The notes under the pieces are model-generated. The model saw only the letters and a list, made by a program, of their open reading frames with translations, had not been told where the DNA came from and made no database searches. A stretch of 32,000 nt of DNA from Bellilinea caldifistulae. Its GTDB lineage: Bacteria; Chloroflexota; Anaerolineae; Anaerolineales; Anaerolineaceae. Location: positions 1 through 32,000 of the forward strand of contig NZ_LGHJ01000017.1 in the NCBI RefSeq assembly GCF_001306055.1, read 5' to 3'. Position numbers and translations under genes: made by a program. This document shows, piece after piece, positions 5,228 through 31,457 of the stretch (positions are counted from its first letter, which is position 1; every line of letters starts with the position of its first letter).

Positions 5228-5881
5228 TTAAAGTTCAAGAGTTTCCGGCACGCGCAGTACCGCGTTGGCCTTGCGCACTTCTTCCGGCACATCGAAGTTC
5301 AGGTCATTACCGACCGCATCTACCAGATATTGCTTAAGCTGGATATTCCAGTGATCCTGATTGACGTAGAAGACTTTGGCGCCGCCCAGTTCATGCTGGT
5401 ATTCCGGCCACGGTTTGGTGGGTTGCGCCATTGCCAAACCGGCCATCCGCCAGCCATTGTAACTTTCGAAAGTTGACCACCACTCCTTGGCTTTGCAGAT
5501 TTCCATGGCGTAGTAGGTTTTGGCGTAGTACATTGCCCAGCCGACCCGTCCGCGGCGCGAAAAGGCCATCGTGTGCAGACTGATAGCAAGGTCTTTGTTC
5601 CAGAAACGTCCGTTGGCAAAACCAACAAATTCACCGTCAATCAAACCGAGAATAGTGAAAGCATCCTTGATGCGTTTGCGTTTGACCGCCAGAATTTCGC
5701 CATAGACGCGCACACCGACAATGTCATAAAAATCTTTTTCGACCTTCATCACCCGTTCCATGAAACCGAGCAGAGTGGGGATGTCATCCTCGGTCATTGA
5801 GCGCAGGTAAAGGGTGCGGCCGTCTTTGAGTTGGAAAGTCGCTTCCGGCCATGGCGGTAATTGCATGGGATAACCCTGCAA
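5228..5881 (-). CDS. GNAT-family N-acetyltransferase-like protein (tentative)
   Basis: 217 aa. The opening LRSMTEDDIPTLLGFM is GNAT-like, and RRGRVGWA fits the Q/RxxGxG/A acetyl-CoA loop. The start is ambiguous: TTG 5881 (GAGG 5 nt upstream) or ATG 5866. Confidence 0.5.
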   Translation of the reverse strand: MQGYPMQLPPWPEATFQLKDGRTLYLRSMTEDDIPTLLGFMERVMKVEKDFYDIVGVRVYGEILAVKRKRIKDAFTILGLIDGEFVGFANGRFWNKDLAISLHTMAFSRRGRVGWAMYYAKTYYAMEICKAKEWWSTFESYNGWRMAGLAMAQPTKPWPEYQHELGGAKVFYVNQDHWNIQLKQYLVDAVGNDLNFDVPEEVRKANAVLRVPETLEL

Positions 5882-13539: not shown

Positions 13540-15410
13540 CTGAATAACACATAATCCTGCAAAAAGCGCTCGGTTTGCTGGTAGAAGTCCTCAATCGTCT
13601 CCGGAGCGCGAAAGCCATGCCCTTCGCCGGGGTACAGGCGGAAGAGGTGCGGCACACCCAATCCGCGCAGACGTTCGACCAGCGCCTGATTTTGCGCGGG
13701 CGGTACAGCCTTATCTTCCTCACCTTGAAAGATCGCCAGCGCATCGCGAATTTGTGAAGCCTGAAAGAGCGGCGAGCGCTTGCGGTAGAGCGCGGCCGCC
13801 TGCGGAAATGGCGCAATCAGGCGATCGGTGTAGTAGCGCTCAAAGCGGTGCGTTTCACGCGCCAGCGCAATCAGGTCGGCTACCGGATAAAGCGCAATCC
13901 CGGCTTTGAACACGCCCGGGTAGCGTACCAGACAATTCAGCACGGTATAACCGCCGGCGCTGCCGCCCATCACCGCCATGCGCTGTTCATCCACCCGGCC
14001 CTGCTGAGCCAGAAAACGCGCCAGGCTGACCGTGTCCACTACGTCCGCCTCGCCCCAATGACCGTTCAAAGCCTGCTGGTACGTGCGCCCGTAACCGCTG
14101 CTGCCGCGGTGATTGACCTCCAGCCAGGCGTAGCCGCGGCTGGTGAAGTAAGCCGCTTCGCGTGGAAAATCCAGCACCACCGCCGAGGTCGGCCCGCCAT
14201 GGACGTGAACGATGAGCGGCGGCAGACCTTCGCCTTGCACCTGCGGATTCTGCGGCGGGTAAAACCAGCCGTAAACCCGACCCCCATCCGGGAGATTGCA
14301 TTCAATGGCTTGTGGCTCGGCAAACCACGTCTCCGGCAGCAGCCACGCATCCGTACAGGCAATCTCCTGCCAGCGGCTTCCATCCCAGCGCAAAACTCGC
14401 TCGGCCAGGCGCGGTGAGGATGCCAGCAAGGCAATTTCACCGCTGAGTGGGTGAACACTCAACTGGCGCAGCCATGTATAAGGTGCGGTGGGAATCACCC
14501 GCACCGCGCCGCTTTCGACTTCCACTTCACACAATTCTGCCAGCCCGGCGCGGTTGCGAATCACCAGCAACCGTCTACCGTCAGGCAGCCAGGCCAGCGT
14601 GCGCTGTCCCTGCACCCAGGCCGGCGTGCTGAGGTGAAAACCCTGCGCCGCGTAAACCAGCCGCTTTTCACCGCTACTCAGATCCAACACGATCAGATCA
14701 TCCCACTCCCCCTGCGCAGCAAGGTAGGCCAGCCGGCGGCCATCCGGCGAAAAGCACGGCTGGGCGAAGGCCGCCTCTTCGTGCCCGCCGGCAATCATCA
14801 CCTTTTCGGCAACTTGCGGCACTTCTCCTGCCAGCCGTGCCATTACCACCCTCGTGGCATCCCAGGGCATGTTCGGGTTCTCCCATTCCACCCACGCCAG
14901 CGCATTTCCATCCGGCGACCAGGCCGGCTGCATGTAAAAATCCGCCCGGCTGTCCAGGAGAATTGGCCAGCCGCCGTTGGACTCAACCAAACCTAATGCA
15001 GCCCGATCCCCATCCTCATGAACAAAAGCCAGCCAGCGGCCATCCGGTGAAGGCGCCGGTGCGCTGAACGCCCCCCAGGCTGGCGTCACAGCTCGAACGG
15101 CAGCCGTTTCGAAATCGTAACGCATGATCTGGCGGCCCTGCTGGACAAAATACAGGCTGTCCCCGCTGGCAGTAAATTCCCCGCCGCCGTAACCCACCCC
15201 ACCGCGCGCCGAATGCTCGAAGAGCAAATCGCGGCGGGCGCTACCTCCGGGTTGATAGACCAGCTGGCCCTGCTTTCCGCGGTTTTCCAGCCAGACCAAT
15301 CCATTGCCGCCAAACTGAACATCCTCCAGCCGGGCGCGCTGGGCCATGCGCCGCGCGCTGATGATGCTGGGCCAAAATCCGTAGGGCTGCCTGCGCTTTG
15401 CGTTACTCAT
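13536..15410 (-). CDS. S9 family serine peptidase (acylaminoacyl-peptidase / prolyl oligopeptidase-like) with N-terminal beta-propeller
   Basis: 624 aa. PD40-like repeats (WSPDG, FSPDGRRLAY), nucleophile elbow GGSAGGY, catalytic His context PGEGHGF. GGAGGAGGAAG RBS. Confidence 0.85.
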   Translation of the reverse strand: MSNAKRRQPYGFWPSIISARRMAQRARLEDVQFGGNGLVWLENRGKQGQLVYQPGGSARRDLLFEHSARGGVGYGGGEFTASGDSLYFVQQGRQIMRYDFETAAVRAVTPAWGAFSAPAPSPDGRWLAFVHEDGDRAALGLVESNGGWPILLDSRADFYMQPAWSPDGNALAWVEWENPNMPWDATRVVMARLAGEVPQVAEKVMIAGGHEEAAFAQPCFSPDGRRLAYLAAQGEWDDLIVLDLSSGEKRLVYAAQGFHLSTPAWVQGQRTLAWLPDGRRLLVIRNRAGLAELCEVEVESGAVRVIPTAPYTWLRQLSVHPLSGEIALLASSPRLAERVLRWDGSRWQEIACTDAWLLPETWFAEPQAIECNLPDGGRVYGWFYPPQNPQVQGEGLPPLIVHVHGGPTSAVVLDFPREAAYFTSRGYAWLEVNHRGSSGYGRTYQQALNGHWGEADVVDTVSLARFLAQQGRVDEQRMAVMGGSAGGYTVLNCLVRYPGVFKAGIALYPVADLIALARETHRFERYYTDRLIAPFPQAAALYRKRSPLFQASQIRDALAIFQGEEDKAVPPAQNQALVERLRGLGVPHLFRLYPGEGHGFRAPETIEDFYQQTERFLQDYVLFS

Positions 15411-15460
15411 CTGCTTCCTCCTCCTATTTGGTTAATTCTACCGGAAAAGCGCCATTGGAA

Positions 15461-15490
15461 TAAAAAAGACTGCCCGCTGAGGGGCAGTCT
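15461..15490 (-). terminator. Rho-independent terminator of trxA
   Basis: AGACTGCCC (15467-15475) pairs with GGGCAGTCT (15482-15490) around a 6-nt loop. On the minus strand it is followed by TTTTTTA. It sits 19 nt after the trxA stop. Confidence 0.6.
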
Positions 15491-15508
15491 TTTCGCATCC
15501 CAACCGCA

Positions 15509-15850
15509 TCAATCCTGCGGATGTACAACCAGATACGGCTCAAGGGTTTCTTTCAAGCGTTGCAAGGGCTGAAAACCGCTCATCCGCTTGACGGCCTCGC
15601 CGTTTTGGAACAGGATCAGGGTCGGCACACTCAGCACCATGAACTGCATGGCAAGGTCTGAAGCCTCATCCACATCCACCGATAAAATTTCCAGACGGTC
15701 ACCCCATTCCTGACTCAGGCGGGCAAGCTCGGGTTCCAGTCGCTTACAGGGACCGCACCAGACCGCCCCGAACTCAACCAGTACCGGTTTTTCCGTGCCA
15801 AGTACCCGTTGTTCAAACTCCTCTTCCGAAATGGTTTCGATTTCTTTCAT
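15509..15850 (-). CDS. trxA: Thioredoxin
   Basis: WCGPCK active site. Start placed at ATG 15850, 8 nt after GGAGG at 15859-15863. A minus-strand TATAAT at 15886-15891 makes the ORF-track start at 15883 unlikely. Confidence 0.85.
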   Translation of the reverse strand: MKEIETISEEEFEQRVLGTEKPVLVEFGAVWCGPCKRLEPELARLSQEWGDRLEILSVDVDEASDLAMQFMVLSVPTLILFQNGEAVKRMSGFQPLQRLKETLEPYLVVHPQD

Positions 15851-15943
15851 TCGCATTTCCTCCACTTCAACTAATGGTATCATTGATTATACTCCACGTG
15901 TCAAGACAACAATTCCATTTAGCAAAAAGATAACCAAACCTTA

Positions 15944-17035
15944 ATGAAACTTCAACTTCCCCATGGTCATCTTGACTTTCCCGCCTTTCTGCCGGACGCA
16001 ACTCTGGCGGTAGTGCGTACAGTCGATTCGCGTGACCTGCGCGCCTGCGGTATTCCGGCTCTGATGATGAACGCCTTTCACCTCATGCAAAAGCCGGGTT
16101 CCAGCGTGATTCAGGCTTTGGGCGGCCTGCACCGGATGAGCAACTGGGATCGCCCAATCTTTACCGATTCGGGTGGTTTTCAGGCTTATTCGCTCATCCG
16201 TCAAAATCCGCGCTTCGGCAAAATGGACGAACGCGGAATCACCTTTCAGCCGGAAGGCGGCCAGCGTAAATTCCTGCTCACACCGGAAAAGAGCGTTCAA
16301 CTGCAAATCGGCTATGACAGCGATGTGGTCATCTGTCTGGATGATTGCACCCATGTGGAAGCGCCCCGCAGCGAGCAGGAACTCTCTGTGCAGCGCACCA
16401 TTGCCTGGGCCAAGCGCGCCCGGCGCGAATATGATCGTTTGATGGAACAAAAGAAACTGACCGGAGGTCAGAGACCGCTCATTTTTGCGGTCATTCAGGG
16501 CGGAGGCGAACTTGACCTGCGCCGTCAATGCGCCGATGCCCTGTTAGAAATTGGTTTTGATGGCTACGGCTTCGGCGGTTGGCCGTTGGACTCTTCCGGA
16601 AGTCTACTGAGCGAGATTCTCGAATATACCCGCCAGTTAGTCCCAGCCCAGTATCCCCTCCACGCCCTGGGAATTGGGCATCCGCACAACGTGGTAACCG
16701 GCTGGCAGCTGGGTTACAGCATTTTCGACTGCGCCATGCCAACCCGTGATGCCCGTCATGGCCGTTTGTACACCTTCACCAATCCTCCCGGACAGGATGG
16801 CGGATTGAACGGCAACTGGCTGGAATACCTCTACATCAACGACGAACGCCACATGCGATCCAGCCGCCCCATCTCCGAGTGGTGCGACTGTCCGACCTGC
16901 CAGCAATATAGCCTCGGCTACTTACGCCACCTGTTCAAGATCAACGACAGCCTCTTTTTAAGGCTGGCAACCATCCATAATTTGCGCTTTATGACCCAGC
17001 TGACCGAGCGCATCCGCCTGAATTCCCATGCCTGA
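15944..17035 (+). CDS. tRNA-guanine transglycosylase (TGT) family protein, divergent
   Basis: 363 aa. TDSGGFQ, IFDCAMPTRDARHG, Zn motif CDCPTCQQYSLGYLRH, IHNLRF. Substrate-pocket segments differ from E. coli Tgt as I recall it (FLPDAT vs FMPVGT; GFGGWPLDSSG vs AVGGLAVGE; LHALGIGHP vs YLMGVGKP). Confidence 0.8.
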   Translation: MKLQLPHGHLDFPAFLPDATLAVVRTVDSRDLRACGIPALMMNAFHLMQKPGSSVIQALGGLHRMSNWDRPIFTDSGGFQAYSLIRQNPRFGKMDERGITFQPEGGQRKFLLTPEKSVQLQIGYDSDVVICLDDCTHVEAPRSEQELSVQRTIAWAKRARREYDRLMEQKKLTGGQRPLIFAVIQGGGELDLRRQCADALLEIGFDGYGFGGWPLDSSGSLLSEILEYTRQLVPAQYPLHALGIGHPHNVVTGWQLGYSIFDCAMPTRDARHGRLYTFTNPPGQDGGLNGNWLEYLYINDERHMRSSRPISEWCDCPTCQQYSLGYLRHLFKINDSLFLRLATIHNLRFMTQLTERIRLNSHA

Positions 17036-17840
17036 GCCGGTGGACATTGATGCCCTGATTCGCGCCGTACAGGCCAACCCGCGCTACGCCGCCATAGACC
17101 CCGGCTTGATTCGCGGGTTAATTGAACGCTATCAGAGCAGCATTCACCAGCCGCGTGAATTGATTAAGGCTGTGCGCAATAAACTTCATCAGGTTGGCGG
17201 GGCTTATCTGGAAAAGCCAATAGACTATGCGAATTGGGGCGAACGCCTTGCAATCCTGCCCCGTGACCTGCATCATCCCCAGGTCAAAGAATTTTGCCGA
17301 CAAATGATGGCGCTGCACGCCTCCACCCGCGAACGCCTTCCAATCCTCGACCGGTTTTATGCGGAAACCCTCACCAGTCTTCAGCCCATTCATTCCATCC
17401 TCGATCTGGCTTGTGGGCTCAACCCGCTGGCTCTACCGTGGATGCCGGTCAACCCCGCTACCCAAATTTACGTTTGCGACATTTACAGCGACCAGATTAA
17501 CTTTTTACAGCAATTTTTCAACCATTTTGGCATCCATGGGCAGGCAACCCTTTGCGACCTGACCCGCAGTCTGCCTCAACAGTCGGTTCAGGTGGCTTTC
17601 CTGCTCAAATCCATCCCCTGTCTGGAGCAATTGGATAAGACCATCGCCACACGTTTGCTGCACGGCATTCCCGCAAAATACTGGCTGATTTCGTTTCCGG
17701 CTCACAGTCTGGGAGGGCGCGGCAAAGGGATGCGCCAGCACTACCGCCAGCACTTTGAGGAACTGATTCGCGGTTGGGCGGTACAATTGCGGTCTTTTGA
17801 ATTCCCCGGTGAACTGGTTTTCCTGCTTTCCCCTGCCTGA
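17028..17840 (+). CDS. FmrO/Rmt-family 16S rRNA (guanine1405-N7)-methyltransferase-like protein, copy 1
   Basis: 270 aa. HASTRERL, DLACGLNPLALPW and SFPAHSLGGRGKGM closely match recalled RmtB motifs (HASTKERL, DIACGLNPLAL, SFPTRSLGGRGKGM). 8-nt overlap (ATGCCTGA) with the TGT gene. Confidence 0.8.
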   Translation: MPEPVDIDALIRAVQANPRYAAIDPGLIRGLIERYQSSIHQPRELIKAVRNKLHQVGGAYLEKPIDYANWGERLAILPRDLHHPQVKEFCRQMMALHASTRERLPILDRFYAETLTSLQPIHSILDLACGLNPLALPWMPVNPATQIYVCDIYSDQINFLQQFFNHFGIHGQATLCDLTRSLPQQSVQVAFLLKSIPCLEQLDKTIATRLLHGIPAKYWLISFPAHSLGGRGKGMRQHYRQHFEELIRGWAVQLRSFEFPGELVFLLSPA

Positions 17841-17938
17841 TTCATCCTGCAGACCTAGCCGCAATCCATTTCGGGACGGATGGCACACCGAAAGGACTCG
17901 GCTATGATAGGGTCATCAAACCACAAGGAGAAACAATC

Positions 17939-18229
17939 ATGGAAAACCAAGTCGAAATCAGAAATACACTCAAGACCAATCCACTGGCAATTGCCAGCCT
18001 GGTTCTATCCGCCGGCGGTTTCAGCTTCCTCCCTCTGATCGGAAGTATCGCCGGCATTGTGACCGGGTACATGGCACGTCGCGAGATACGCGAGAATTCC
18101 CACCTCTACAACGGCGAGAGCCTTGCCAAAACGGCGATCATCCTCGGATGGATTGGGATTGTGCTGCCAATCGTGATCCTCACCTTTGGCATACTCTTCA
18201 TGTTTCCTGCGACGACGATCTTCCGCTAA
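17939..18229 (+). CDS. DUF4190-like small membrane protein, paralog 1
   Basis: 96 aa, two TM segments flanking a charged loop (GSIAGIVTGYMARREI...GESLAKTAIILGWIG). AAGGAG RBS. Confidence 0.65.
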   Translation: MENQVEIRNTLKTNPLAIASLVLSAGGFSFLPLIGSIAGIVTGYMARREIRENSHLYNGESLAKTAIILGWIGIVLPIVILTFGILFMFPATTIFR

Positions 18230-18246
18230 TGACGGGCTGACCTATG

Positions 18247-18324
18247 AACGGGAATGGGTTGAGGAAATTTCCTGTGTTTATCCCTCGTTGGAGATGACCA
18301 AAACCCATTCCTGGATCCCGTTTT
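18247..18324 (+). other. Long interrupted hairpin with T-run between the DUF4190 paralogs
   Basis: GGAATGGGTT (18251-18260) pairs with AACCCATTCC (18302-18311). The stem is extended by AACG/CGTT across a 7-nt bulge. A GGAAATTTCC palindrome sits in the apical part at 18263-18272, and TTTT follows. Confidence 0.25.
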
Positions 18325-18391
18325 CCCAAAAAGATAAAAAAACAAGGTTAAAATAAACTTGTCTGCACACTCATACGAAAGAAAAAATCTC

Positions 18392-18697
18392 ATGGAAAGA
18401 ACCCCGCAAATTGAACATGTTTCCTCTCATCCTCTCGCCATTGTTGGCCTGGTGCTTGGTATTCTTGGGCTGATCGGCGTGTTACCGTTGGTCGGCTCAA
18501 TTGGGGCATTGATCGCCGGCAAAATGGCTCAAAAGGAAATTCTGGAAAAACCAGAACTTTACACAGGTGAGAATTTTGCCCGCGCCGGCATCATCATGGG
18601 ATGGATAGGACTCGCCATTGGGGTTGTCATTTGTGTGCTGGTAGCGGTTGCTTTTCTGTTCTTCATGCCGGTTGGCATACAAACCATGCCTCAATAA
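18392..18697 (+). CDS. DUF4190-like small membrane protein, paralog 2
   Basis: About 50% identical by eye to paralog 1 (GSIGALIAGKMAQKEI...GENFARAGIIMGWIG). Start is ATG 18392, with TTG 18359 as an alternative. Confidence 0.65.
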   Translation: MERTPQIEHVSSHPLAIVGLVLGILGLIGVLPLVGSIGALIAGKMAQKEILEKPELYTGENFARAGIIMGWIGLAIGVVICVLVAVAFLFFMPVGIQTMPQ

Positions 18698-18703
18698 CCC
18701 ACG

Positions 18704-19804
18704 ATGAACCTGCACAGCCGCTGGCAACAATTTACGAATCGTTTTCTGAACCGTCTGCGCTGGCGGCTGACCCTGAGTTTCACGCTGGTCACCCTGGCGG
18801 CAATCTTAATGGCAGCCTGGTGGAGCTTCCTGGCGCTGAATGTATATCTTTCTCGCACCATGCCGGATCTGTTTACCGGCTCATCAGCCAGCCAGATGCT
18901 TCCCGGTCTCCTTCAACTGGCAGGACAGGCTCTGCTGGTGCTGATCATTCCGGCTGTGCTGGTAGGAACGTTGTTCGGTTTTTTAACCGCACGCTGGCTG
19001 GAAAGCCGGCTTGACCATTTGCGAAACACCACCGAGGCATGGGCAAACGGCAACTTCAAGCCCCGCATCAACGACCTTGCTCAGGATGAAATTGCCCGCT
19101 TCGGCAGGCAATTGAATCAAATGGCTGCGGAACTGGAAACCCTGATGTCAACCCGTCAGCAGTTAGCTGCCATGGAAGAACGGAATCAGCTCGCCCGCGA
19201 CCTGCACGATTCGGTTAAGCAAAATCTGACTGCGGCCATCTTGCAGCTGAACACCGCTGCAGTGCTGATCGCAACCGAACCTCAGGCTGCCCAACAGACC
19301 CTTCAAAGAGCCGAGGATCTTGCAGTGCAGGCTCAGCAGGAACTCACCAATGTGATATTAGAACTTCGTCCGGCGATGCTGCACCAAAAGAACCTGCCCG
19401 GTGCATTGAAAGATTACCTGCAACGATGGCAACAGCAAAATCAAATTGTCGTGGACTTCACTCACACCGAAAACCTCCAGCTGACATTCAGTCAGGAATT
19501 AACCCTTTTCCGAATAGTGCAGGAAGCCCTTGCCAATGTCATCCGCCACAGCAGTGCAACCCATGTCAACGTTTCTCTTGATTGCGACTCGCACCAGATC
19601 ATGTTGAGAATTCAGGACAATGGCCGCGGCTTTGACCTCAGCCGGTCAGGTTCTTCCGGCTTTGGTTTGAAAAGCATGCGCGACCGGGTGGAAGAAATTG
19701 GCGGTCGGCTGGAGATTGAAAGCAGCATCGGACAGGGAACAACGGTCAGCGCCTCCGTTCCGATCAAACTTGAACCGCGAAATGAGGAAATCCTCAATGG
19801 ATAA
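18704..19804 (+). CDS. Sensor histidine kinase, HisKA_3 (LiaS/DesK/NarX-type), two TM segments with a short loop, HAMP domain
   Basis: H-box LARDLHDSVKQNL, N-box EALANVIRHS, G-boxes IQDNGRGF and GFGLKSM. The loop between the two N-terminal TM segments is only about 20 aa. Confidence 0.85.
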   Translation: MNLHSRWQQFTNRFLNRLRWRLTLSFTLVTLAAILMAAWWSFLALNVYLSRTMPDLFTGSSASQMLPGLLQLAGQALLVLIIPAVLVGTLFGFLTARWLESRLDHLRNTTEAWANGNFKPRINDLAQDEIARFGRQLNQMAAELETLMSTRQQLAAMEERNQLARDLHDSVKQNLTAAILQLNTAAVLIATEPQAAQQTLQRAEDLAVQAQQELTNVILELRPAMLHQKNLPGALKDYLQRWQQQNQIVVDFTHTENLQLTFSQELTLFRIVQEALANVIRHSSATHVNVSLDCDSHQIMLRIQDNGRGFDLSRSGSSGFGLKSMRDRVEEIGGRLEIESSIGQGTTVSASVPIKLEPRNEEILNG

Positions 19805-20462
19805 AACGCCCAACCCAATTACGGTAATTATTGTGGATGACCACGCCGTTGTTCGGCAGGGTTTGATCGCTTTTCTACAAACACAGGAAGACATCGAAAT
19901 CATCGGTGAGGCTGAAAATGGGGCGCAGTTGCTTAAGTTACTCCCCCATAGCGTGCCGGATGTCCTGCTGATGGATCTGATCATGCCGGATATGGACGGG
20001 GTTGAGGCGACCCGCCGGGTAAAAGCCATCAGCCCTCATACGCAGGTCATCATTTTCACCTCTTATTACAAGGATGAACATATTTTTCCGGCTGTTCGGG
20101 CCGGAGCGCTCTCGTATATTTTGAAAGACACCAAACCCGCCGAACTGGTTGATGCCATTCGAAAAGCTTCGCGGGGTGAAGCCGTTCTTCATCCGCGTGT
20201 TGCAGCCCGGCTTGTGCAGGAAGTACAGGGCATACGCAGCGAAACCATCAACCCGTTTTCAGAATTGAGTGACCGTGAGTTGGAAATTCTGCGCCTGATC
20301 GCCAGCGGCATTTCCAATCGCGAGATTGCCGAAGTTCTGTTCATCAGCGAAAAAACAGTCAAGAGCCATGTGAGCAACATTCTCTCCAAACTGCACCTGG
20401 CCGACCGCACCCAGGCTGCCGTTTACGCCTGGAATCAAGGAATTGTCAGACGGGATGAATAA
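19797..20462 (+). CDS. Response regulator, NarL/FixJ family (REC + LuxR-type HTH)
   Basis: VIIVDDHAVVRQGL, LMDLIMPDMDG, LSDRELEILRLIASGISNREIAEVLFISEKTVKSHVSNIL. 8-nt overlap (ATGGATAA) with the kinase gene. Confidence 0.9.
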   Translation: MDKTPNPITVIIVDDHAVVRQGLIAFLQTQEDIEIIGEAENGAQLLKLLPHSVPDVLLMDLIMPDMDGVEATRRVKAISPHTQVIIFTSYYKDEHIFPAVRAGALSYILKDTKPAELVDAIRKASRGEAVLHPRVAARLVQEVQGIRSETINPFSELSDRELEILRLIASGISNREIAEVLFISEKTVKSHVSNILSKLHLADRTQAAVYAWNQGIVRRDE

Positions 20463-21282
20463 AACTGCTTCTGTTTCTGAAGATGAAATTCGCAAATGGA
20501 TTGGAATGCTGCGCGCCATTCGAAAGTATCGCTCGCTGGATTTACCCGATGCCCTCCTGCGCGATTTGATTGTGGAGGAGCTGTCCCGTCATTCCTCTTC
20601 CAGTGAGGCGTTGAAAGCCGTTCGCCGTAAACTCCACAACATCGTTGCCCCTTACCTTGGCGATCCAGACTACACCACCGCCCAAAAAGCCCTGGAGGCT
20701 GCTTTTACCGACGGAAGCCCACAATCTGTCCGAGAATTCTGCCTGTCCATGCTGGCCAGTCACGCCTCCACCCGTGAGCGGATTCCGCTCCTCGATGAGT
20801 TTTACTCCCGTTTGTGGAAAATCACCGGACTACCCCAGACACTCCTTGACCTGGCTTGTGGAATGCAACCGTTTGCCCTGCCGTGGATGGGCTTGCCCAC
20901 CTTGACCCGCTATTTCGCCTATGATCTGCACCGGCCGCGCGTTGATTTGATCAACCAGTTTTTTCAACGGAGCGGCTGCCGCGGTTCTGCCATTCACGAG
21001 GATATTTTGGTCAATCCTCCGCAGATAGAAGCCGAAGTTGCCCTGTTTTTCAAAGAAGCCCACCGTTTTGAACAACGCCGCCGCGGGGCCTGTTTGCCTT
21101 TCTTTCAAGCCCTGCGCGTTCGCTGGCTGCTGGTATCACTGCCAATCAGCAGCCTGAAAGGCACCCGTGATTTAGAAGATCGTCAACGCAGGTTGATGCA
21201 GTCCATCCTTGGCGGTCAAACCTGGGAGGTCACAGAAATCCGTTTTGAGAACGAGTTGGTGTTCTGTATTCAAAAAACATGA
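20455..21282 (+). CDS. FmrO/Rmt-family 16S rRNA methyltransferase-like protein, copy 2 (divergent)
   Basis: HASTRERIP and DLACGMQPFALPW are conserved, but the SLxGxxKGM segment is replaced by SLKGTRDLE. ATG 20455 overlaps the RR stop by 8 nt (ATGAATAA), with TTG 20443 as an alternative start. ATGA overlap with the next gene. Confidence 0.7.
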   Translation: MNKTASVSEDEIRKWIGMLRAIRKYRSLDLPDALLRDLIVEELSRHSSSSEALKAVRRKLHNIVAPYLGDPDYTTAQKALEAAFTDGSPQSVREFCLSMLASHASTRERIPLLDEFYSRLWKITGLPQTLLDLACGMQPFALPWMGLPTLTRYFAYDLHRPRVDLINQFFQRSGCRGSAIHEDILVNPPQIEAEVALFFKEAHRFEQRRRGACLPFFQALRVRWLLVSLPISSLKGTRDLEDRQRRLMQSILGGQTWEVTEIRFENELVFCIQKT

Positions 21283-22772
21283 GCCGTCGTAAAAAAACTT
21301 CCTCAACCGCTCCCTACCCTGCCATTTCAGCACGAGAGACGGCGCTGGAACAATTCCGCGCCTTGCTTGCGCCGGAGGATTTTCAAGCCCTGCTCGAAGA
21401 GCTGGAGCGCCCGCTGTTGCCCGCCTTTCGGATCAACCCACTCAAAACTTCGCCGCAAGCCGTTGCAGACTGGTGCAACTGGTACGGTTGGGAGGTCCAG
21501 CCGGTAGTGTTTTGCCCAACCGGCTGGCAGGTTCGCCAGGCGCGTACACCGCTCAGCCAGACCCTGGAACACCGGTTGGGGCACTACTACATTCAGGATG
21601 CGGCTTCGATGCTTCCGGCAGAATTATTCGACCTGCCAGCGTCTCCCTACCCGCTGATTCTTGACCTGGCCGCTTCGCCCGGGGGAAAGACCACCCACCT
21701 GATCAGCCGCACCCTTGACCGCGGGTTGGTACTGGCCAACGATGCCGGACTCGAACGGATCACCCCACTGCGTTTGGTGCTGCAAAATTGGGGGACGGTC
21801 AATACCGCTGTCACCCGCTTTCCAGCCGAAAAGTTTGGGCGCTGGTTTCCGGCCACCTTCGATTGGGTGTTGCTGGATGCACCGTGCAGCATGCAATCCC
21901 TCCGACCGACCGAATCGCATCCGATGCGGAGCATCTCTCAGCGCGAGCAATCCCATCTGGCACGCCGCCAAACGGCAATGCTCCTCTCCGCCCTGGCAGC
22001 GGTCAAACCCGGCGGTCAGGTGGTCTACTCGACCTGTACCCTCGCTCCGCAAGAAGACGAAGCCGTTCTGGATGAGATTATCCGCCGCCTGCCGTTCAGT
22101 GTTCAAATCAACCCGGTCACCGACCGGCTCCCCGCCCCTGCCCCAGCACTCGCCAATGCGTTTGGTCAAGTCTTCCATCCGCAGGTACAAAACGCCCTGC
22201 GCCTCTGGCCACATCGCTTTTCGACATCCGGTTTTTTTGCGGCCCGCTTAACCCGCACTGGTGAAGTTGAATTACCCATCGAACCGCCACCTGCCCGCCC
22301 CCTGCGCGAAACCGGTCAGGAGCCGCTCAACCGCTCAAACCTGCAAGAGATCACCCACTGGCTACAAAATACCTACGCTTTTGACCTGCTCAGCGTACTG
22401 GAAACCTATCGCTTAGAACTGTGGCACAGCCAGACCTCCGTTTTTGCCGTTCCCATTGCTTTTCTGGAAAGATTCAACGAACTGCCGTGTCAAATGCTGG
22501 GTCTCAAGGTATTGGAAGAAACCCCCGATGGCTGGCAGCCCGCCCATGAATGGGTCAATCGTTTTTTCAATCTCTTTCACGCCGGACGATTAGTCCTACC
22601 GAATGAAATGATGGACGAATGGCTGAAAGGCAAGGATGTTCCCCTGCCGGTTTCCGCCGCTAATCCTCCCGCCGTCTGGTTGGTGTTTGATGAACGCAAC
22701 CGCTTTGTGGGGAGGGGACGCTCCAGTGGTCCCTGGTTGAAAAACCTGCTGCCGCGTCGCCTGATTGGGTAA
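21279..22772 (+). CDS. rsmF: 16S rRNA (cytosine1407-C5)-methyltransferase RsmF-like (NOL1/NOP2/Sun family with C-terminal extension)
   Basis: 497 aa. The architecture is collinear with E. coli RsmF as recalled (EDFQALLEELERPLLPAFRINPLK; YYIQDAASMLP; DLAASPGGKTTH; LLDAPCS; VYSTCTLAPQEDE; C-terminal LKNLLPRRLIG vs LKNSYPRELV). No NusB-like N-domain, so not RsmB-type. Confidence 0.75.
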   Translation: MSRRKKTSSTAPYPAISARETALEQFRALLAPEDFQALLEELERPLLPAFRINPLKTSPQAVADWCNWYGWEVQPVVFCPTGWQVRQARTPLSQTLEHRLGHYYIQDAASMLPAELFDLPASPYPLILDLAASPGGKTTHLISRTLDRGLVLANDAGLERITPLRLVLQNWGTVNTAVTRFPAEKFGRWFPATFDWVLLDAPCSMQSLRPTESHPMRSISQREQSHLARRQTAMLLSALAAVKPGGQVVYSTCTLAPQEDEAVLDEIIRRLPFSVQINPVTDRLPAPAPALANAFGQVFHPQVQNALRLWPHRFSTSGFFAARLTRTGEVELPIEPPPARPLRETGQEPLNRSNLQEITHWLQNTYAFDLLSVLETYRLELWHSQTSVFAVPIAFLERFNELPCQMLGLKVLEETPDGWQPAHEWVNRFFNLFHAGRLVLPNEMMDEWLKGKDVPLPVSAANPPAVWLVFDERNRFVGRGRSSGPWLKNLLPRRLIG

Positions 22773-22780
22773 GAGACGCT

Positions 22781-23755
22781 TCAATCAGAAAGGCTAATTT
22801 CAGCGGTGCGAATGTTCAGCCGGTAGCGCAAACCGAATTGATCCTGAATCAACAGGGTTTCGCCCTCATCCCAGGAAACTGGCAGGTATTGACCCTGCCG
22901 ATTTTCGACAATATAACGCACCACACCGCTGATCAGGTCAACCAGCACAAATGAGGTTTGCATCTCCGCTGGTTGTTGAATATTGCCCAAAATGCCAAAA
23001 GCCAGCCGGCTGTTATCGGGCGCCCAGACCAACCCGCCGGCCTGCCAGTTATCTCCTTGATCCAGCTGCAGTAAGTTTGTGAAGGCAATTTCGCGGAGAA
23101 CCTCCCCCGACAAACTGTGAATGACCAGACGGCCACCCTGCAAAACAGCAAAGGTTTCAACGTCCCCCGCCGCCCGCAACAAACCGCATTCACCGGTTAG
23201 TTGGGTTCTTTCACCGTTTTGCAAATTGACGCGATAAAGACCGCAATCAAATCCGACGATGGTCGGGCTACCATCCGGTATACCATGCTCGGTGTAAAAA
23301 AATTGACTTCCATCTTGGCTCCAGTGGAATTGAGCCGGTAAGGTATAACCCAGCCCAAAGGGGCGTTCTTCATCGAGGATCGGCCAGCGCAACCCGCCAT
23401 CCTTGCGGAACACCGACAGCGAAAGCCGGTAAGTTTCGCCGCTTACCCTGCCATCGGCTGCAACTGGAAAGATGGTGCTGACCTGTACCGTCCATTGACC
23501 ATCCGGCGAGGGGTAAAACCAGTCCTCATGGGTTGTTTTTGGCGGGGCAGGAGACGAAGTCGGGGTTGACCGAATAGCTTCGGTGGATGGGGGCGCCAAA
23601 GTTTCTACCTGGCGAAGTTCAACCGCCGGCGTCGGCGATACCAGTGGAGGTTGAATGACCGCAGTTGGTAGAGACGGCGCAGCCGTTGAACAGGCTGCTA
23701 TTCCGATGCACGCCCCTATCCAGACCAGATTACGCAGCCATTTGGTCATCATCAT
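22781..23755 (-). CDS. Lipoprotein of unknown function, PD40/beta-propeller-like repeats
   Basis: Signal peptide plus lipobox (GIAAC). WSQDGSQFFY and WAPDNSRLAF are repeat-like strings. The start overlaps the rsmE stop (ATGATGATGA). Confidence 0.6.
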   Translation of the reverse strand: MMMTKWLRNLVWIGACIGIAACSTAAPSLPTAVIQPPLVSPTPAVELRQVETLAPPSTEAIRSTPTSSPAPPKTTHEDWFYPSPDGQWTVQVSTIFPVAADGRVSGETYRLSLSVFRKDGGLRWPILDEERPFGLGYTLPAQFHWSQDGSQFFYTEHGIPDGSPTIVGFDCGLYRVNLQNGERTQLTGECGLLRAAGDVETFAVLQGGRLVIHSLSGEVLREIAFTNLLQLDQGDNWQAGGLVWAPDNSRLAFGILGNIQQPAEMQTSFVLVDLISGVVRYIVENRQGQYLPVSWDEGETLLIQDQFGLRYRLNIRTAEISLSD

Positions 23756-24507
23756 CTCCTTTTCGCATAATCCTGTTCTTCAAAAAGGGCCAGCAGTAAA
23801 GCAGCCCCGACAATCGCAGCCGTTTCGGTGCGCAAGATGCGTTTCCCTAAACTCACCGGCAGCCAGCCGGCCTGTTCGGCTGCTTGAACTTCCTCGGCTT
23901 CCCAGCCGCCTTCAGGCCCGATCAGCAAGCCGGCGTGGGCAGCGCTATCCGCTGGTAAAACAGCCGCCGCGCCGATCATCCGTTGGGTTTCACCCTCCCA
24001 CGCCATCAATCCAATCTCAAAGTTTTGCCTGAACGGAAGAAAATCCGGCAGCCATCGCGGTTCATCCAGGCGCGGGATCATTCCCCGTCCGGCTTGTTCG
24101 GCCGCCTCCTGCAAAATTCGTTGCCAGCGGGGATACTTTTCCAGGGCCAATGCAGGATGCTGCACCAGACTGCGCCGGGTGATCAGCGGCACAATCCTGC
24201 TCACCCCCACTTCGGTCACTTTTTGGAGCGTCCACTCAAATTTTTCCCGCTGGGTCAAAGCCAAACCGAGCGTCAGGTGTAAAGCAGGTTCTCGTTCGTT
24301 TTTCTGCCAGCCCAACAAAACCCCGCTTGCTTCTCGTACCGAGAGAGCGGTTAATTCGACTACCGCTTCGTTACCCGAACCATCCAGTGCCATCACCCTG
24401 CAGCCGGGGGTAAGTCGCAAGACTTGCGCCATCTGACGGGCGCACTCCGGTGGAAATTGAACCCGATTCCCCTCAAATGCTGTCGGCGGGATAAAGAAAC
24501 GGTGCAT
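23752..24507 (-). CDS. rsmE: 16S rRNA (uracil1498-N3)-methyltransferase
   Basis: MHRFFIP start typical of RsmE, about 250 aa, C-terminal LLIGPEGGW...E...LG.RILRTETA SPOUT motif. The TTG start at 24549 directly abuts GGAGG and was rejected. Confidence 0.85.
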   Translation of the reverse strand: MHRFFIPPTAFEGNRVQFPPECARQMAQVLRLTPGCRVMALDGSGNEAVVELTALSVREASGVLLGWQKNEREPALHLTLGLALTQREKFEWTLQKVTEVGVSRIVPLITRRSLVQHPALALEKYPRWQRILQEAAEQAGRGMIPRLDEPRWLPDFLPFRQNFEIGLMAWEGETQRMIGAAAVLPADSAAHAGLLIGPEGGWEAEEVQAAEQAGWLPVSLGKRILRTETAAIVGAALLLALFEEQDYAKRR

Positions 24508-24661
24508 ACCCCAATTGTACCTGATGGAATTCGATTTTTCAGGTTTCAACCTCCTGAATTAATTTGAATGAAATTTGTAATCCGTGGGGTGTGTCATTTG
24601 TCGGTACAGATTCGACCCCACATTTCTTAAAATTGAAACATCCCTTCTGGAGATTGTTTGT

Positions 24662-25465
24662 ATGAAAACGGCCAAACTTCGCCCCACAAACCGCATGGAA
24701 GCAGTGACCAGCCGTTGGTGGTTCCTGCTGATTGTCATTTTGATCAGTTTTTTTCCTCTTTATTCCCAACAGCCCTACGACCCGCGCCAAACCTCCGAAG
24801 TCATCAGCGCGGTACTGGCTTCACCGCTGATTTACTCGTTGCCAGCACTCTTTCCTCTGTTCAAAATCATCCCGCTGGCTTTGACCGTCTGGCTATTGTT
24901 TGAGCCGATTAAGGCGCTGCGCTGGTTTGCCCTCTATGCTGCGCTCAATCTGTTCGGAATTGCCTTCTTTCAGAACAGCGCCCTCACCTCCCAGTATGGA
25001 CTGGTGATTATCACCGGAAATGTAATTCTCTTCGGCGCAATCGGCGCAGCATGGCTTGCGGAGGCAATGAATCCCCGCTTAATTTTTTCAACCCGTCCTT
25101 TGACGACCCGGGCTTTGATCCTTGTGCCGTTGATGTTGCTTGCCTTCTGGATGCCGATTCAAACCGAAACTATGCGCCTGAATCTCGATCCAGCATTGCT
25201 TTTTACCAATGAAGCGGGATTGACCGGCTGCATGATGCTACCCCTTTATACCGGCATGCTGGTGATTGCTTACCCTCAGGTTAACCGGGTTTTGCTGCGC
25301 CTGAGCGGCTTCATCGGTCTGCTAATCGCCTTTTTTAATTTACTGACCCATTTTGTTTTTGTGCCTGCCAATTTCTGGATGGGCGTGCTGCATCTGCCGT
25401 TGTTCTTCATCTCCCTGACGGCATTTGTCTTATCGCTGCGGAAACCAACCTCTCAACCGGCCTGA
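24662..25465 (+). CDS. Polytopic membrane protein, unknown function
   Basis: 267 aa with at least 6 hydrophobic segments. GGAG lies 10 nt before ATG 24662. No recognisable motif. Confidence 0.55.
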   Translation: MKTAKLRPTNRMEAVTSRWWFLLIVILISFFPLYSQQPYDPRQTSEVISAVLASPLIYSLPALFPLFKIIPLALTVWLLFEPIKALRWFALYAALNLFGIAFFQNSALTSQYGLVIITGNVILFGAIGAAWLAEAMNPRLIFSTRPLTTRALILVPLMLLAFWMPIQTETMRLNLDPALLFTNEAGLTGCMMLPLYTGMLVIAYPQVNRVLLRLSGFIGLLIAFFNLLTHFVFVPANFWMGVLHLPLFFISLTAFVLSLRKPTSQPA

Positions 25466-25521: not shown

Positions 25522-26235
25522 ATGGAAAAATGGGTCAAAGACCTGAAAACACTGGTGGGGATCCAACTGACCGCCCGGCAAATTGCCGCCTTTCAGCGTT
25601 ATGAGGATGAACTGCTGGAATGGAACAGCCGCATGAATCTGACCGCCATCCGCGATCGCGAGGGGATACGCACCAAACATTTCCTTGACTCGCTCAGTTG
25701 TATTCTTGCTTTTCGCGAACGCCCCCCCGAACGTCTGATTGACATCGGCACCGGAGCCGGATTTCCGGGTATTCCCCTCAAAATCATTTACCCGCGCATG
25801 AAACTTACGCTGGTTGAATCGGTTGGCAAGAAGCTGGAATTTTGCCGTCATATCGTTCAAACGCTCAAGCTGGAGGATGTAACCCTGCTCCAGGCCCGTG
25901 CTGAAGCGCTCGGCCAGGATCGCGCCTACCGCGAGCAGTATGACTGGGCAGTTGCCCGGGCGGTTGCCACCCTGCCCGTTTTAGCCGAATATCTACTACC
26001 GCTGGTTGCGCTGGGCGGAAAAATGCTGGCACAAAAAGGAGAAAGTGCCCATACCGAAGCGGTTGCCGCGGAAAAAGCCATCCGCGTACTGGGAGGTGAG
26101 CTCCAGCAAATCATTCCCGTTCTGGTACCGGGCATTGCCGAAGAACGTTATTTGGTCGTGGTGGATAAAGTCGCTATTACTCCGCCCGGTTATCCAAGGC
26201 GGGTTGGCTTACCTGCTCGCCGTCCAATTCAGTAA
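25522..26235 (+). CDS. rsmG: 16S rRNA (guanine527-N7)-methyltransferase
   Basis: NSRMNLTAIRD, KHFLDSL, DIGTGAGFPGIPLKI, 237 aa. Confidence 0.9.
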   Translation: MEKWVKDLKTLVGIQLTARQIAAFQRYEDELLEWNSRMNLTAIRDREGIRTKHFLDSLSCILAFRERPPERLIDIGTGAGFPGIPLKIIYPRMKLTLVESVGKKLEFCRHIVQTLKLEDVTLLQARAEALGQDRAYREQYDWAVARAVATLPVLAEYLLPLVALGGKMLAQKGESAHTEAVAAEKAIRVLGGELQQIIPVLVPGIAEERYLVVVDKVAITPPGYPRRVGLPARRPIQ

Positions 26236-29734: not shown

Positions 29735-31444
29735 CTACTTCTTCGCTAAACGGCTCTGTTCCTTTTCGAAAATTCGCCTCAGAATGGCAACACTGGTGGC
29801 ATAGGTCGAGTCCATCCCAAAGTAAGAAAGCGTGCCCGCCCCCAAATTTTTACCTTTGCTCAAGGGAGTATCCGAAGCATAATGGAGAATGCCCAGATCA
29901 AAGGGAACTTCATAAAGATTGACCACTTCATTGATCGGGTGCCGCTTGGGACGAAACATCTCATACACCGCAGAAAGATAAGGGCCGGCTTCCATTTCAA
30001 TATCGGTATAACCTTCGCGGTAAATCACGTCCATGATACGGGCATTTTGTAAAAAGGTACCGTACACGCTGACTGCTTTTTGATTATCTAAAACCGTGCC
30101 GTACAACAAATACCGTGCCACATGCGAGGCATTGAACGCATTCTGGAACAGGAAGGTATTTTCGGAATGTTCATCCTGGACTACATTGGGAATCATCACA
30201 TCCCCAAGCCGGCCGTTCAAGGTAGCCGCCTTTCCCATGATATACACCCCCAAAATAGGATGAACGTGTTCGGAAATTTTGACCAGCAAATTATAGGCAG
30301 CCACCCCAAGGGGATAATCAATGTTCAAAATCAGAGCATCACTGCGTTCCAGCCAGGCAAGTTCGCCGTGTTTAATGCGTGGATCCATCCGAGCCGGGTC
30401 TAAACGGCGCAATTCAATTACCTGAGCTTCCACATCGAAATAATGCTCGCTCGGTATGCGCACAATCCCCAAATTGACTTCATCCATCGCCTGTGCATGA
30501 AGTAACGCTCGCCCTTCGCTGGTCTGCTGATATTTCTTCAAAACATAATACAGGAAGTTCTCCTGACTGGAAGGCACCTGCCCATTGCAAATGCTCTCCC
30601 ACTCGCGCTTGAGATCCTCGTTTTCCTTGCGATCCAGAAAGCGCATCAATTCATCACGATGTTGCAGGGCAAAACCGGTCGTCAGATTAATTAAGGAATG
30701 GGTGTTGCTGGAGACGAAATAAACCGGGCGGCCGGTCAGGATGGGACAGCATCGTTGGATATTATCCCACCAGGCCTGGGTAGCCCGGCGGTAGTCCGCC
30801 AGCGAACCGCTCAGCAGGCGCACCCCAATCCGGCAGCGTTTATGAGCAATCCGCTGTAAATTTGCGTAAAATTCCCGCCCCCACACCGTCCGCAGCCGTT
30901 CGAGGTCTTCCACCGTCATTTCCAGCGTATTAGCCAGTTGCCGAAAGGCATCTTCGTCCTTTGCCAGCGTCCGGGCATTCAGCGGACGCTGCCATCTTTG
31001 CAATAAGTTGTGTAATTTATTCCACTCAATCTGGTAAGCCGTCAGGGTTGGAATAATGTCATCAATATCCGAGCGGCTGGCAATGTAGCAGGCCAGCGTA
31101 TCTTTCCCGTTGAAAAAACAACGCCGGCGGCGAGCGCGCGCCGAAACCGGCTGCCAGTTTTCCACCTGACTGTAACCGTGCTGGTTAAAAACACTGGCGC
31201 TCTGCCCCAAAACCACCGAGCGCACCTCGGTCATGCAATCCGGCAGGCGCAGCGAGCTGTAAATCAGCGCAGAAATGTCCGGAGTGACTTTGCGCGCATC
31301 CGGGTGCAGAGATGAGTTGGTCGCCGCATGAACTTCTTCCAACGAGCGGATTTGAACCTCGGCTGAAGTTCGCAGTAACGAGTAAATGGTACGCAGGTAC
31401 AGGTCAATTTCTTCCGAAGCCGTGCTGGGAACTGTTCTCTCCAT
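29735..31444 (-). CDS. Protein with C-terminal nucleoside phosphorylase (PNP/UDP/AMP-nucleosidase) fold and about 350-aa N-terminal region of unknown function
   Basis: The C-terminus NIDYPLGVAAYNLL...YIMGKAATLNGRLGDVMIP...TDIEMEAGPY...HYASDTPL parallels UDP/Amn core strings (GIGGPS..., IGTTG...GDV, YEMESA, CVSDKPL) as recalled. Start is ATG 31444, with TTG 31474 as an alternative. Confidence 0.6.
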   Translation of the reverse strand: MERTVPSTASEEIDLYLRTIYSLLRTSAEVQIRSLEEVHAATNSSLHPDARKVTPDISALIYSSLRLPDCMTEVRSVVLGQSASVFNQHGYSQVENWQPVSARARRRRCFFNGKDTLACYIASRSDIDDIIPTLTAYQIEWNKLHNLLQRWQRPLNARTLAKDEDAFRQLANTLEMTVEDLERLRTVWGREFYANLQRIAHKRCRIGVRLLSGSLADYRRATQAWWDNIQRCCPILTGRPVYFVSSNTHSLINLTTGFALQHRDELMRFLDRKENEDLKREWESICNGQVPSSQENFLYYVLKKYQQTSEGRALLHAQAMDEVNLGIVRIPSEHYFDVEAQVIELRRLDPARMDPRIKHGELAWLERSDALILNIDYPLGVAAYNLLVKISEHVHPILGVYIMGKAATLNGRLGDVMIPNVVQDEHSENTFLFQNAFNASHVARYLLYGTVLDNQKAVSVYGTFLQNARIMDVIYREGYTDIEMEAGPYLSAVYEMFRPKRHPINEVVNLYEVPFDLGILHYASDTPLSKGKNLGAGTLSYFGMDSTYATSVAILRRIFEKEQSRLAKK

Positions 31445-31457
31445 GTCCCAAATTGTA

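Follow-up and report, generated by a model that had tools for sequence, protein, structure and literature searches.

FmrO-family methyltransferase genes are usually found in one of two settings, an aminoglycoside biosynthesis cluster or a plasmid, transposon or insertion sequence common region (ISCR) element. Why, then, does Bellilinea caldifistulae carry two of them where neither setting applies, in a conserved neighbourhood of core genes instead? The pair lies in a stretch of 32,000 nucleotides (nt) (positions 1 to 32,000 of contig NZ_LGHJ01000017.1, assembly GCF_001306055.1), which is called the window throughout. Copy 1, named fmrO1 here (17028..17840, + strand), encodes a protein of 270 amino acids (FmrO1), and copy 2, named fmrO2 (20455..21282, + strand), one of 275 amino acids (FmrO2). 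An initial annotation, made from the sequence alone, placed both in the aminoglycoside-resistance class; the homology to that class stands, and resistance is neither a demonstrated nor a necessarily selected function of the pair here. We consider it somewhat likely, on comparative sequence evidence, that the pair is part of an Anaerolineae operon that is passed on vertically and modifies the decoding centre by means of two non-redundant FmrO enzymes, and that it is not an acquired resistance determinant.

N7-methylguanosine at position 1405 of 16S rRNA (m7G1405) has been described as limited to aminoglycoside-producing actinomycetes and plasmid-borne genes, and as evolutionarily recent, in a 2026 review in Microbiology and Molecular Biology Reviews (PMC13602947). 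The existence of the proteins described here as a clade has probably been noted already: the legend of Fig. 1A of a bioRxiv paper of 2019 (10.1101/712810) lists what are probably the same proteins or close relatives. Apart from that legend, the searchable literature yielded nothing on the paralog subfamilies, the operon, or the signature or function of FmrO2, and nothing relevant on the evolutionary origin of 16S rRNA methyltransferases or on kanamycin phenotypes of Anaerolineae isolates. FmrO1 is a further member of a known family; the novelty lies in the conserved operon that carries the pair and in the separate subfamily that FmrO2 represents.

Family membership and fold of the two proteins

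Both open reading frames (ORFs) had been assigned to the FmrO family in the initial annotation, and the Pfam profile search proposed there places both inside it. Against a gathering threshold of 27 bits, PF07091 scores 142.7 bits for copy 1 (E 2e-41; profile positions 4-243 of 255) and 138.5 bits for copy 2 (E 3e-40; positions 3-253). The family membership of both ORFs is beyond chance. The start of copy 2 is set at the ATG at 20455 (MNKT...), which agrees with the N-termini of its orthologs; the longest ORF begins at a TTG at 20443. The motifs quoted earlier are all present, namely HASTRERL, DLACGLNPLALPW and SLGGRGKGM in copy 1 and HASTRERI, DLACGMQPFALPW and SLKGTRDLE in copy 2. The claimed paralogy also holds: the two proteins are 32% identical across 264 aligned residues (E 7e-43). 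The orthologs of either copy form a large set of their own at 50-60% identity, and the nearest relative found in homolog searches, a metagenome-assembled genome of Bellilinea sp., carries copy 1 at 93% and copy 2 at 83% identity.

Among solved structures, those of Sgm (E 1e-36 for copy 1 and 2e-29 for copy 2), RmtB, RmtF, ArmA and RmtC are the top matches of both copies. AlphaFold2 models of the two proteins were built on ortholog alignments and have predicted local distance difference test (pLDDT) values of 91.0 for copy 1 and 90.3 for copy 2. In Foldseek comparisons with Sgm they superpose full-length with template modelling (TM) scores of 0.88/0.91 for copy 1 (3lcu) and 0.83/0.88 for copy 2, in an overall range of 0.83-0.92. 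The scores against RmtB, RmtC and RmtF are 0.66-0.89, and copy 2 reaches 0.77 against 30S-bound RmtC (8ghu). Beyond the m7G1405 enzymes, the next methyltransferases have TM scores below 0.47. Because the superposition is full-length and other methyltransferases stay below this value, both copies have the family-specific N1/N2 helical domain in addition to the seven-stranded class I methyltransferase (Rossmann) core.

Functional residues were taken from crystal, mutagenesis and cryo-electron microscopy (cryo-EM) papers on RmtC (10.1101/712810; PMC10288597) and compared, in RmtC numbering, across 66 copy-1 and 77 copy-2 orthologs, with RmtC, ArmA, RmtB, RmtE and RmtF (sequences from plasmids) and Sgm as references. 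The set that binds S-adenosylmethionine (SAM) and supports catalysis, H105/S107/E110/R111, D134, D160, Y60 and K204, is present in both window proteins and kept in 97-100% of the orthologs of either copy. Y21, R50, H54, Y60, H105, S107, E110, R111, D134, D160, K204, P234 and G240 are conserved at about 97-100% in both clades. The N1 docking positions 20, 21, 47, 50 and 54, which address the surface formed by helices h24, h27, h44 and h45, read R, Y, K, R and H in copy 1 and K, Y, K, R and H in copy 2. Both proteins are very probably active FmrO-family enzymes acting on h44 of the 30S subunit.

FmrO1 as a candidate m7G1405 methyltransferase

FmrO1 is of the canonical FmrO/Arm-Rmt-Kgm type and is a predicted 16S rRNA m7G1405 methyltransferase. 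The window protein keeps the RmtC-equivalent residues R20, Y21, K47, R50, H54, Y60, S107, D134, D160, K204, G240, R241 and M245, and K47 is retained in 64 of the 66 copy-1 orthologs. The loop that distorts h44 in RmtC (residues 237-246, with G240, R241 and K243-G244-M245) is matched by copy 1 (SLGGRGKGM), although position 236 just ahead of it, the one notable departure in this copy, is His; copy 2 departs from the loop itself. Across the copy-1 clade the GGR-x-KGM loop has R or K at position 241 (50/66), K243 (63/66) and M or L at position 245 (66/66), and Y249 is also kept. Y21, R50, H54, Y60, S107, D134, D160, K204 and G240 are close to 100% conserved among the 66 orthologs. Substitution of these residues, or of R241 or M245, abolishes the resistance that RmtC confers (PMC10288597, 10.1101/712810). 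Because almost all residues essential in RmtC are retained, FmrO1 is likely to be an m7G1405 enzyme, and we regard the formation of m7G1405 by FmrO1 as probable.

FmrO2 as a constrained paralog with an altered putative pincer

FmrO2 is a divergent, strongly constrained FmrO-family methyltransferase. The initial annotation had pointed to its altered loop and considered it a possible pseudo-enzyme or regulatory partner. The alteration is real: the window protein has an altered K204 helix (KEAHRFEQRRRG) and a shorter h44-gripping loop, SLKGTRD-LE, and the deletion of G244 is found in 77 of 77 orthologs. The signature around K204 in the clade is KEAHRF, which comprises Glu205 and the invariant His207 (77/77) and Arg208 (77/77); position 207 is Pro in copy 1 and most references. 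In and near the loop, position 243 is D, S or N, position 245 is mostly Leu, and position 249 is Q or H. Position 241 is T in the window protein and R in 30/77 orthologs.

The proposed role as a pseudo-enzyme or regulatory partner is unlikely. K20 is kept in 76/77 orthologs, and Y21, H54, Y60, S107, D134, D160 and K204 are kept in all 77; K47 is retained only in 32/77. In 57 of 62 genomes, conservation is also higher for FmrO2 than for FmrO1, and mean identities to the window proteins are 56.1% for copy 2, 50.8% for copy 1, 69.2% for the tgt product and 52.1% for the rsmF product. A decaying pseudo-enzyme is ruled out by the retained SAM-binding, catalytic and main docking residues together with this conservation above copy 1. 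FmrO2 is probably an active, non-redundant paralog. It has lost neither the SAM pocket nor the N7-directing Lys204, the stacking Tyr60 or the main docking residues, and therefore probably docks on the same 30S surface as the known enzymes.

The differences between the two clades are concentrated around the pocket. Positions fixed differently are RmtC 55, 59, 162, 203, 205, 207, 208, 209, 220 and 244, plus one insertion. All of these ten positions except 220 lie within three residues of RmtC contacts, as compared with 13 of the 28 identically fixed positions (9/10 versus 13/28; one-sided Fisher p=0.018). In RmtC, one side of the pincer is built from residues 207, 211, 245 and 248 together with the loop, and this side keeps hold of C1407/A1408/C1409 and A1492/A1493 as G1405 flips (PMC10288597). 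Because the rebuilt residues of FmrO2 correspond to the RmtC contacts of the C1407/A1408 pocket, a change in the nucleotide that is flipped or in the substrate state suggests itself, and we give about an even chance to FmrO2 differing from FmrO1 in target or substrate state.

Gene order in the Anaerolineae

A pattern scan based on the copy-2 alignment, run on one genome per GTDB species, confirmed relatives in 201 genomes. Locus counts rest on 80 of these, all Anaerolineae, among them the cultured Ornatilinea apprima P3M-1 and Leptolinea tardivitalis YMTK-2 and the complete genome of Leptolinea sp. HRD-7. Neighbourhoods were surveyed by tblastn of the window proteins against the 80 loci, of which 69 were informative with at least 3 kb upstream of fmrO2 and 71 with at least 1.5 kb downstream.

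fmrO1 lies upstream of fmrO2 on the same strand in 61/69 loci. tgt, encoding a tRNA-guanine34 transglycosylase, stands immediately 5' of fmrO1 in all 61 fmrO1-bearing loci and also in L086, L088 and L090, three additional loci that carry copy-1 homologs. In the window it occupies 15944..17035 (+ strand; Pfam TGT E 1e-93; TIGR00430 315.6 bits, above the equivalog cutoff of 306.75). An rsmF-like gene follows fmrO2 immediately in 69/71 loci. Its window copy (21279..22772, + strand) encodes a putative 16S rRNA 5-methylcytidine (m5C) methyltransferase of the C1407 family, with Pfam Methyltr_RsmF_N and RsmB-F domains and a weak PUA match. The protein aligns over its full length to Escherichia coli YebU/RsmF (2FRX, E 1e-54) and has the DAPCS and STCT motifs; its score of 246.7 bits against the NCBIfam equivalog model NF008898 is under the cutoff of 588. 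A convergent rsmE gene follows just past rsmF in 43/80 loci, plus L088, which has the complete cluster with rsmE. In the window this rsmE-type gene for a 16S rRNA 3-methyluridine-1498 (m3U1498) methyltransferase lies at 23752..24549 (- strand; PF04452 E 1e-45; TIGR00046 RsmE subfamily 156 bits versus a cutoff of 41). With rsmG (m7G527; 25522..26235, + strand), a further 16S rRNA methyltransferase gene nearby, five predicted 16S rRNA methyltransferase genes fall inside 9.2 kb of the window. The order rsmG-recF-def is next in line in 15/80 loci, chiefly those nearest the window.

The reading frames of the cluster are tightly joined. The stop of tgt overlaps the start of fmrO1 by 8 nt (ATGCCTGA), and the stop of fmrO2 overlaps the start of rsmF by 4 nt (ATGA). 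The two fmrO genes had been described as 2.6 kb apart. The gap in the window is indeed 2614 nt, but this is a derived state, and the usual arrangement is a contiguous tandem in tgt-fmrO1-fmrO2-rsmF with a median fmrO1-fmrO2 gap of about 6 nt. The gap of about 2.6 kb is limited to the six loci nearest the window, where it contains one or two DUF4190 genes, a HisKA_3 kinase gene and a NarL-type regulator gene.

In the window this cassette (17939-20462) comprises four genes on the + strand: two for small DUF4190 membrane proteins (a, 17939..18229, PF13828 E 5e-19; b, 18359..18697, PF13828 E 4e-14, with an alternative ATG about 33 nt downstream), one for a LiaS/NarX-like sensor histidine kinase (18704..19804; Pfam HAMP, HisKA_3 and HATPase_c; NCBIfam LiaS-like 140 bits, below its cutoff) and one for a NarL/LuxR-type response regulator (19797..20462; Response_reg and GerE). 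Overlaps of 8 nt join the kinase stop to the regulator start and the regulator stop to the fmrO2 start (ATGAATAA). Because of the second of these overlaps, fmrO2-rsmF may be translated together with the two-component system, which possibly also controls them. The cassette is absent from the more distant Leptolinea, Ornatilinea, Levilinea, Longilinea and Flexilinea, and is therefore most simply explained as an insertion in a Bellilinea-like sublineage.

Phylogeny and inheritance

As proposed with the initial annotation, the two copies were placed in a tree together with known enzymes. The neighbour-joining tree (260 columns, 300 bootstraps) was run with six references, including Sgm, ArmA and Rmt enzymes, and these form a group apart from both Anaerolineae clades. 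Of the 300 bootstraps, 293 support the copy-1 clade, 300 the copy-2 clade and 233 the group of six reference resistance enzymes, giving three separate groups. The distance from Sgm to copy 1 (1.42) is smaller than that from copy 1 to copy 2 (1.63). Because Sgm is nearer to copy 1 than copy 2 is, the duplication reaches as far back as the diversity known for this family. A recent duplication is ruled out by this relationship, the 32% identity of the copies and their robust clades. As the tree is unrooted and the method simple, no conclusion is drawn as to which group is ancestral.

The initial annotation regarded the genes as intrinsic to the chromosome and free of a mobile or biosynthetic context. 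Both statements are upheld by synteny conserved in at least 80 species-level Anaerolineae genomes and by Pfam scans, in which no transposase, integrase or aminoglycoside-biosynthesis domains were found in the other window ORFs of at least 150 amino acids. There is no local anomaly in G+C content in the window. Horizontal acquisition or a mobile context is ruled out by the normal G+C content, the conserved Anaerolineae synteny and the lack of mobile genes in the window.

It had also been suggested that the pair bears on the origin of the acquired Rmt genes. This bearing is weak, with 24-33% identity to ArmA and RmtB/C/E/F, NCBIfam Rmt scores under the cutoffs and separate clades. The same evidence rules out a direct ancestor of acquired Rmt/ArmA; because they are only about 30% identical and fall in separate clades, the Anaerolineae FmrO genes are not the direct source of these enzymes.

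Proposed function and alternative explanations

The cluster tgt-fmrO1-fmrO2-rsmF with convergent rsmE would encode a set of modifiers of the decoding site, acting on the top of 16S h44 and on the tRNA wobble position. FmrO1 would grip h44 with His54 on one side and the GGRxKGM loop on the other, turn G1405 outward and transfer a methyl group from SAM to its N7. m7G1405 would then be a constitutive native modification, and insensitivity to 4,6-deoxystreptamine (4,6-DOS) aminoglycosides would be its by-product and not a selected trait. In FmrO2, the side of the pincer for C1407/A1408/C1409-A1492/A1493 would have been rebuilt and then frozen: K-E-A-H-R-F replaces K-T/S-I/L-P-C-L, one loop residue is deleted, the loop Lys is lost and Met is changed to Leu. 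Such an enzyme may flip another h44 nucleotide or act on another substrate state, for example h44 that carries or awaits the m5C mark of RsmF, and fmrO2 is translationally coupled to the rsmF gene. A more specific version makes FmrO2 a new specificity class in the Arm/Rmt/Kgm fold: it would dock like RmtC, and its rebuilt pincer (invariant His207-Arg208, shortened loop) would direct the modification to some h44 nucleotide that is not G1405, or to G1405 only together with m5C marks that depend on RsmF. This version is a tentative and rather doubtful proposal.

To our knowledge, none of the model bacteria has an FmrO-type enzyme with a known housekeeping role. The cultured members of the Anaerolineaceae are strict anaerobes, and the uptake of aminoglycosides depends on a membrane potential generated by respiration; resistance is therefore unlikely to be the main selective force. 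Because of the operon partners, the family-wide vertical pattern and the poor aminoglycoside uptake of anaerobes, the latter from background knowledge, we think it reasonably likely that the selected role of the pair is housekeeping and not resistance.

Several observations weigh against this interpretation. The gene cluster can be split. fmrO2-rsmF occurs alone, with unrelated genes upstream, in about 8-10 loci; L086 (6001-6813) has tgt-fmrO1 alone, followed by MFS/TetR genes; and in L090 (6001-8579) tgt-fmrO1-fmrO2 is followed by a gene for a 236-amino-acid protein with no Pfam match and there is no rsmF. Because of these loci, strict co-transcription is not required. A scan for sigma-70 promoters and terminators over 15300-23900 gave counts at chance level, so that transcription units are not definable from it, and the argument from the neighbouring rsmF, rsmE and tgt is one of guilt by association. 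At the protein level, both copies miss the curated cutoff of 250 bits of NF000466, the model for the Rmt family of 16S rRNA G1405 N7-methyltransferases, with 205 bits for copy 1 and 157.6 bits for copy 2. K236 has been described as conserved in all known enzymes, but position 236 is His in window FmrO1 and His, Arg or other residues across its clade, and it is non-basic (S/A/T/E) in FmrO2. The tree is unrooted, made by a simple method and contains only six reference enzymes. Finally, m7G1405 enzymes carry a fitness cost in E. coli and interfere with RsmI or RsmF (PMC3923132), and a constitutive native role is therefore non-trivial.

The separation of fmrO1 and fmrO2 is seen in L016, L018, L019, L024, L030, L031, L033, L057, L064 and L083. 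No matches were found between the flanks of L086 and those of the loci with fmrO2-rsmF only. Taken together, the cluster behaves as two tight modules, [tgt-fmrO1] and [fmrO2-rsmF], which are usually fused. In the vicinity of L090, radical-SAM genes and additional class I methyltransferase genes are present.

How do other explanations fare against these data? Both genes might be true resistance determinants against the 4,6-DOS aminoglycosides of neighbouring actinomycetes, both methylating G1405, with two copies for dosage or differential regulation; in this lineage, an envelope-stress-type two-component system ahead of one copy would make its expression inducible. In favour of this, the similarity of both proteins is specifically to m7G1405 resistance enzymes, all characterised family members confer resistance, and a LiaS/NarL-type two-component system is translationally coupled to fmrO2 in the window. 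Yet this insert is confined to one sublineage, and two redundant G1405 enzymes, each with a frozen signature, would not both persist family-wide. The operon partners are housekeeping RNA-modification genes and not transporters or drug-modifying enzymes, there is no producer cluster or mobile element in the window, and anaerobic hosts are known as background to take up aminoglycosides poorly. We regard resistance as the function of both genes as unlikely.

An obligate FmrO1-FmrO2 heterodimer, in which one protein catalyses G1405 methylation and the other serves mainly in RNA recognition as in Trm6/Trm61-type pairs, would account for the tandem adjacency (median gap of about 6 nt; the pair together in 61/69 loci) and for the complementary differences in the RNA-contact segments. 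Characterised family members are, however, monomeric on the 30S subunit (RmtC-30S cryo-EM, PMC10288597), and known non-catalytic partners lose their SAM site, whereas FmrO2 keeps the SAM and catalytic residues in 77/77 orthologs. The two genes are moreover separated in some genomes, each with a different partner (tgt or rsmF), and such a heterodimer seems improbable. Still less probable is that one or both proteins work off the ribosome and methylate another RNA, such as tRNA or 23S rRNA, on the FmrO scaffold. In either clade there is essentially no variation in the N1 residues that dock RmtC on h44/h45 (K/R20, Y21, R50 and H54) or in Y60 and K204, which contact G1405, the complete two-subdomain N-terminal architecture is retained, and the cluster partners rsmF and rsmE act on h44; on the other side stand the invariant tgt-fmrO1 coupling, the retention of K47 in only 32/77 FmrO2 orthologs, the loss of K236 in both clades, and scores under the Rmt equivalog cutoff for both proteins.

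Comparison with known systems

The best match of both copies in sequence and structure is the Sgm/Kgm family of intrinsic m7G1405 enzymes from actinomycete producers (3LCU/3LCV), which are likewise chromosomal and intrinsic. FmrO1 shares with them the G-G-R-x-K-G-M loop, the LLK(T/S)(I/L)PCLE motif and the N1/N2 plus Rossmann architecture. In contrast to those systems, the host here is a non-producer with no biosynthetic cluster, the genes form a tandem pair in a tgt/rsmF/rsmE cluster, and identity is about 28-30%; in FmrO2, the K204 helix is also rebuilt and the loop is one residue shorter. The acquired ArmA/RmtA-H enzymes (e.g. RmtC, 6PQB, 8GHU) have the Pfam family and fold in common with the pair, and FmrO1 conserves the RmtC-essential K20 (as K or R), Y21, K47, R50, H54, Y60, K204, R241 and M245. 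Both copies are nevertheless far under the cutoffs of all RmtA-H 'exception' models of NCBIfam, and none of the Anaerolineae genes is carried by a plasmid, an integron or an ISCR element.

Homologs of E. coli RsmF (YebU, m5C1407), RsmE (m3U1498) and RsmG (m7G527) all adjoin the FmrO pair. The fmrO genes behave like these in being vertically inherited core genes in their lineage, although the protein families differ. The operon pairs two deep FmrO subfamilies with genes for modification of C1407, U1498 and tRNA-G34. In E. coli, RsmI or RsmF suffers interference from m7G1405 enzymes (PMC3923132), whereas fmrO and rsmF are co-organised in the Anaerolineae, which would provide a natural experiment on how G1405-type methylation coexists with RsmF and RsmE, enzymes that clash with it in E. 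coli.

An operon that is inherited vertically throughout a family of strict anaerobes, none of them producers, points to a native physiological role of these enzymes. FmrO2 would represent a naturally re-engineered h44 'pincer', the site that inhibitor design now targets. If FmrO2 does have a new specificity, Anaerolineae ribosomes would carry a new modification pattern at the aminoglycoside-binding site, and the origin of the clinical resistance enzymes would lie in an ancient housekeeping system and not in antibiotic producers. Because cultured hosts exist (Leptolinea tardivitalis, Ornatilinea apprima and Leptolinea sp. HRD-7), these questions are directly testable.

Other genes in the window

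An Rfam scan of the window gave zero matches. The rest of the window is of housekeeping character; Pfam matches among its ORFs include proS, thioredoxins, an S9 peptidase, components of ABC transporters, rsmE, rsmG, recF, def and hycI. The 324-amino-acid ORF between rsmF and rsmE (22781-23755, - strand) matches nothing in Pfam or NCBIfam, and its N-terminus (…IGIAAC…) resembles that of a lipoprotein. The start of this ORF and the stop of rsmE overlap by 4 nt, and the ORF is found only in close relatives, at 35-79% identity. Two further ORFs match no Pfam family, one of 217 amino acids (5228-5881, - strand) and one of 293 amino acids (24584-25465, + strand), the latter conserved only in the three nearest genomes. 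At 29735-31474 (- strand), a full-length DUF6909 match of 804 bits adjoins genes for a cyclic nucleotide monophosphate (cNMP)-binding protein and the HycI hydrogenase maturation protease.

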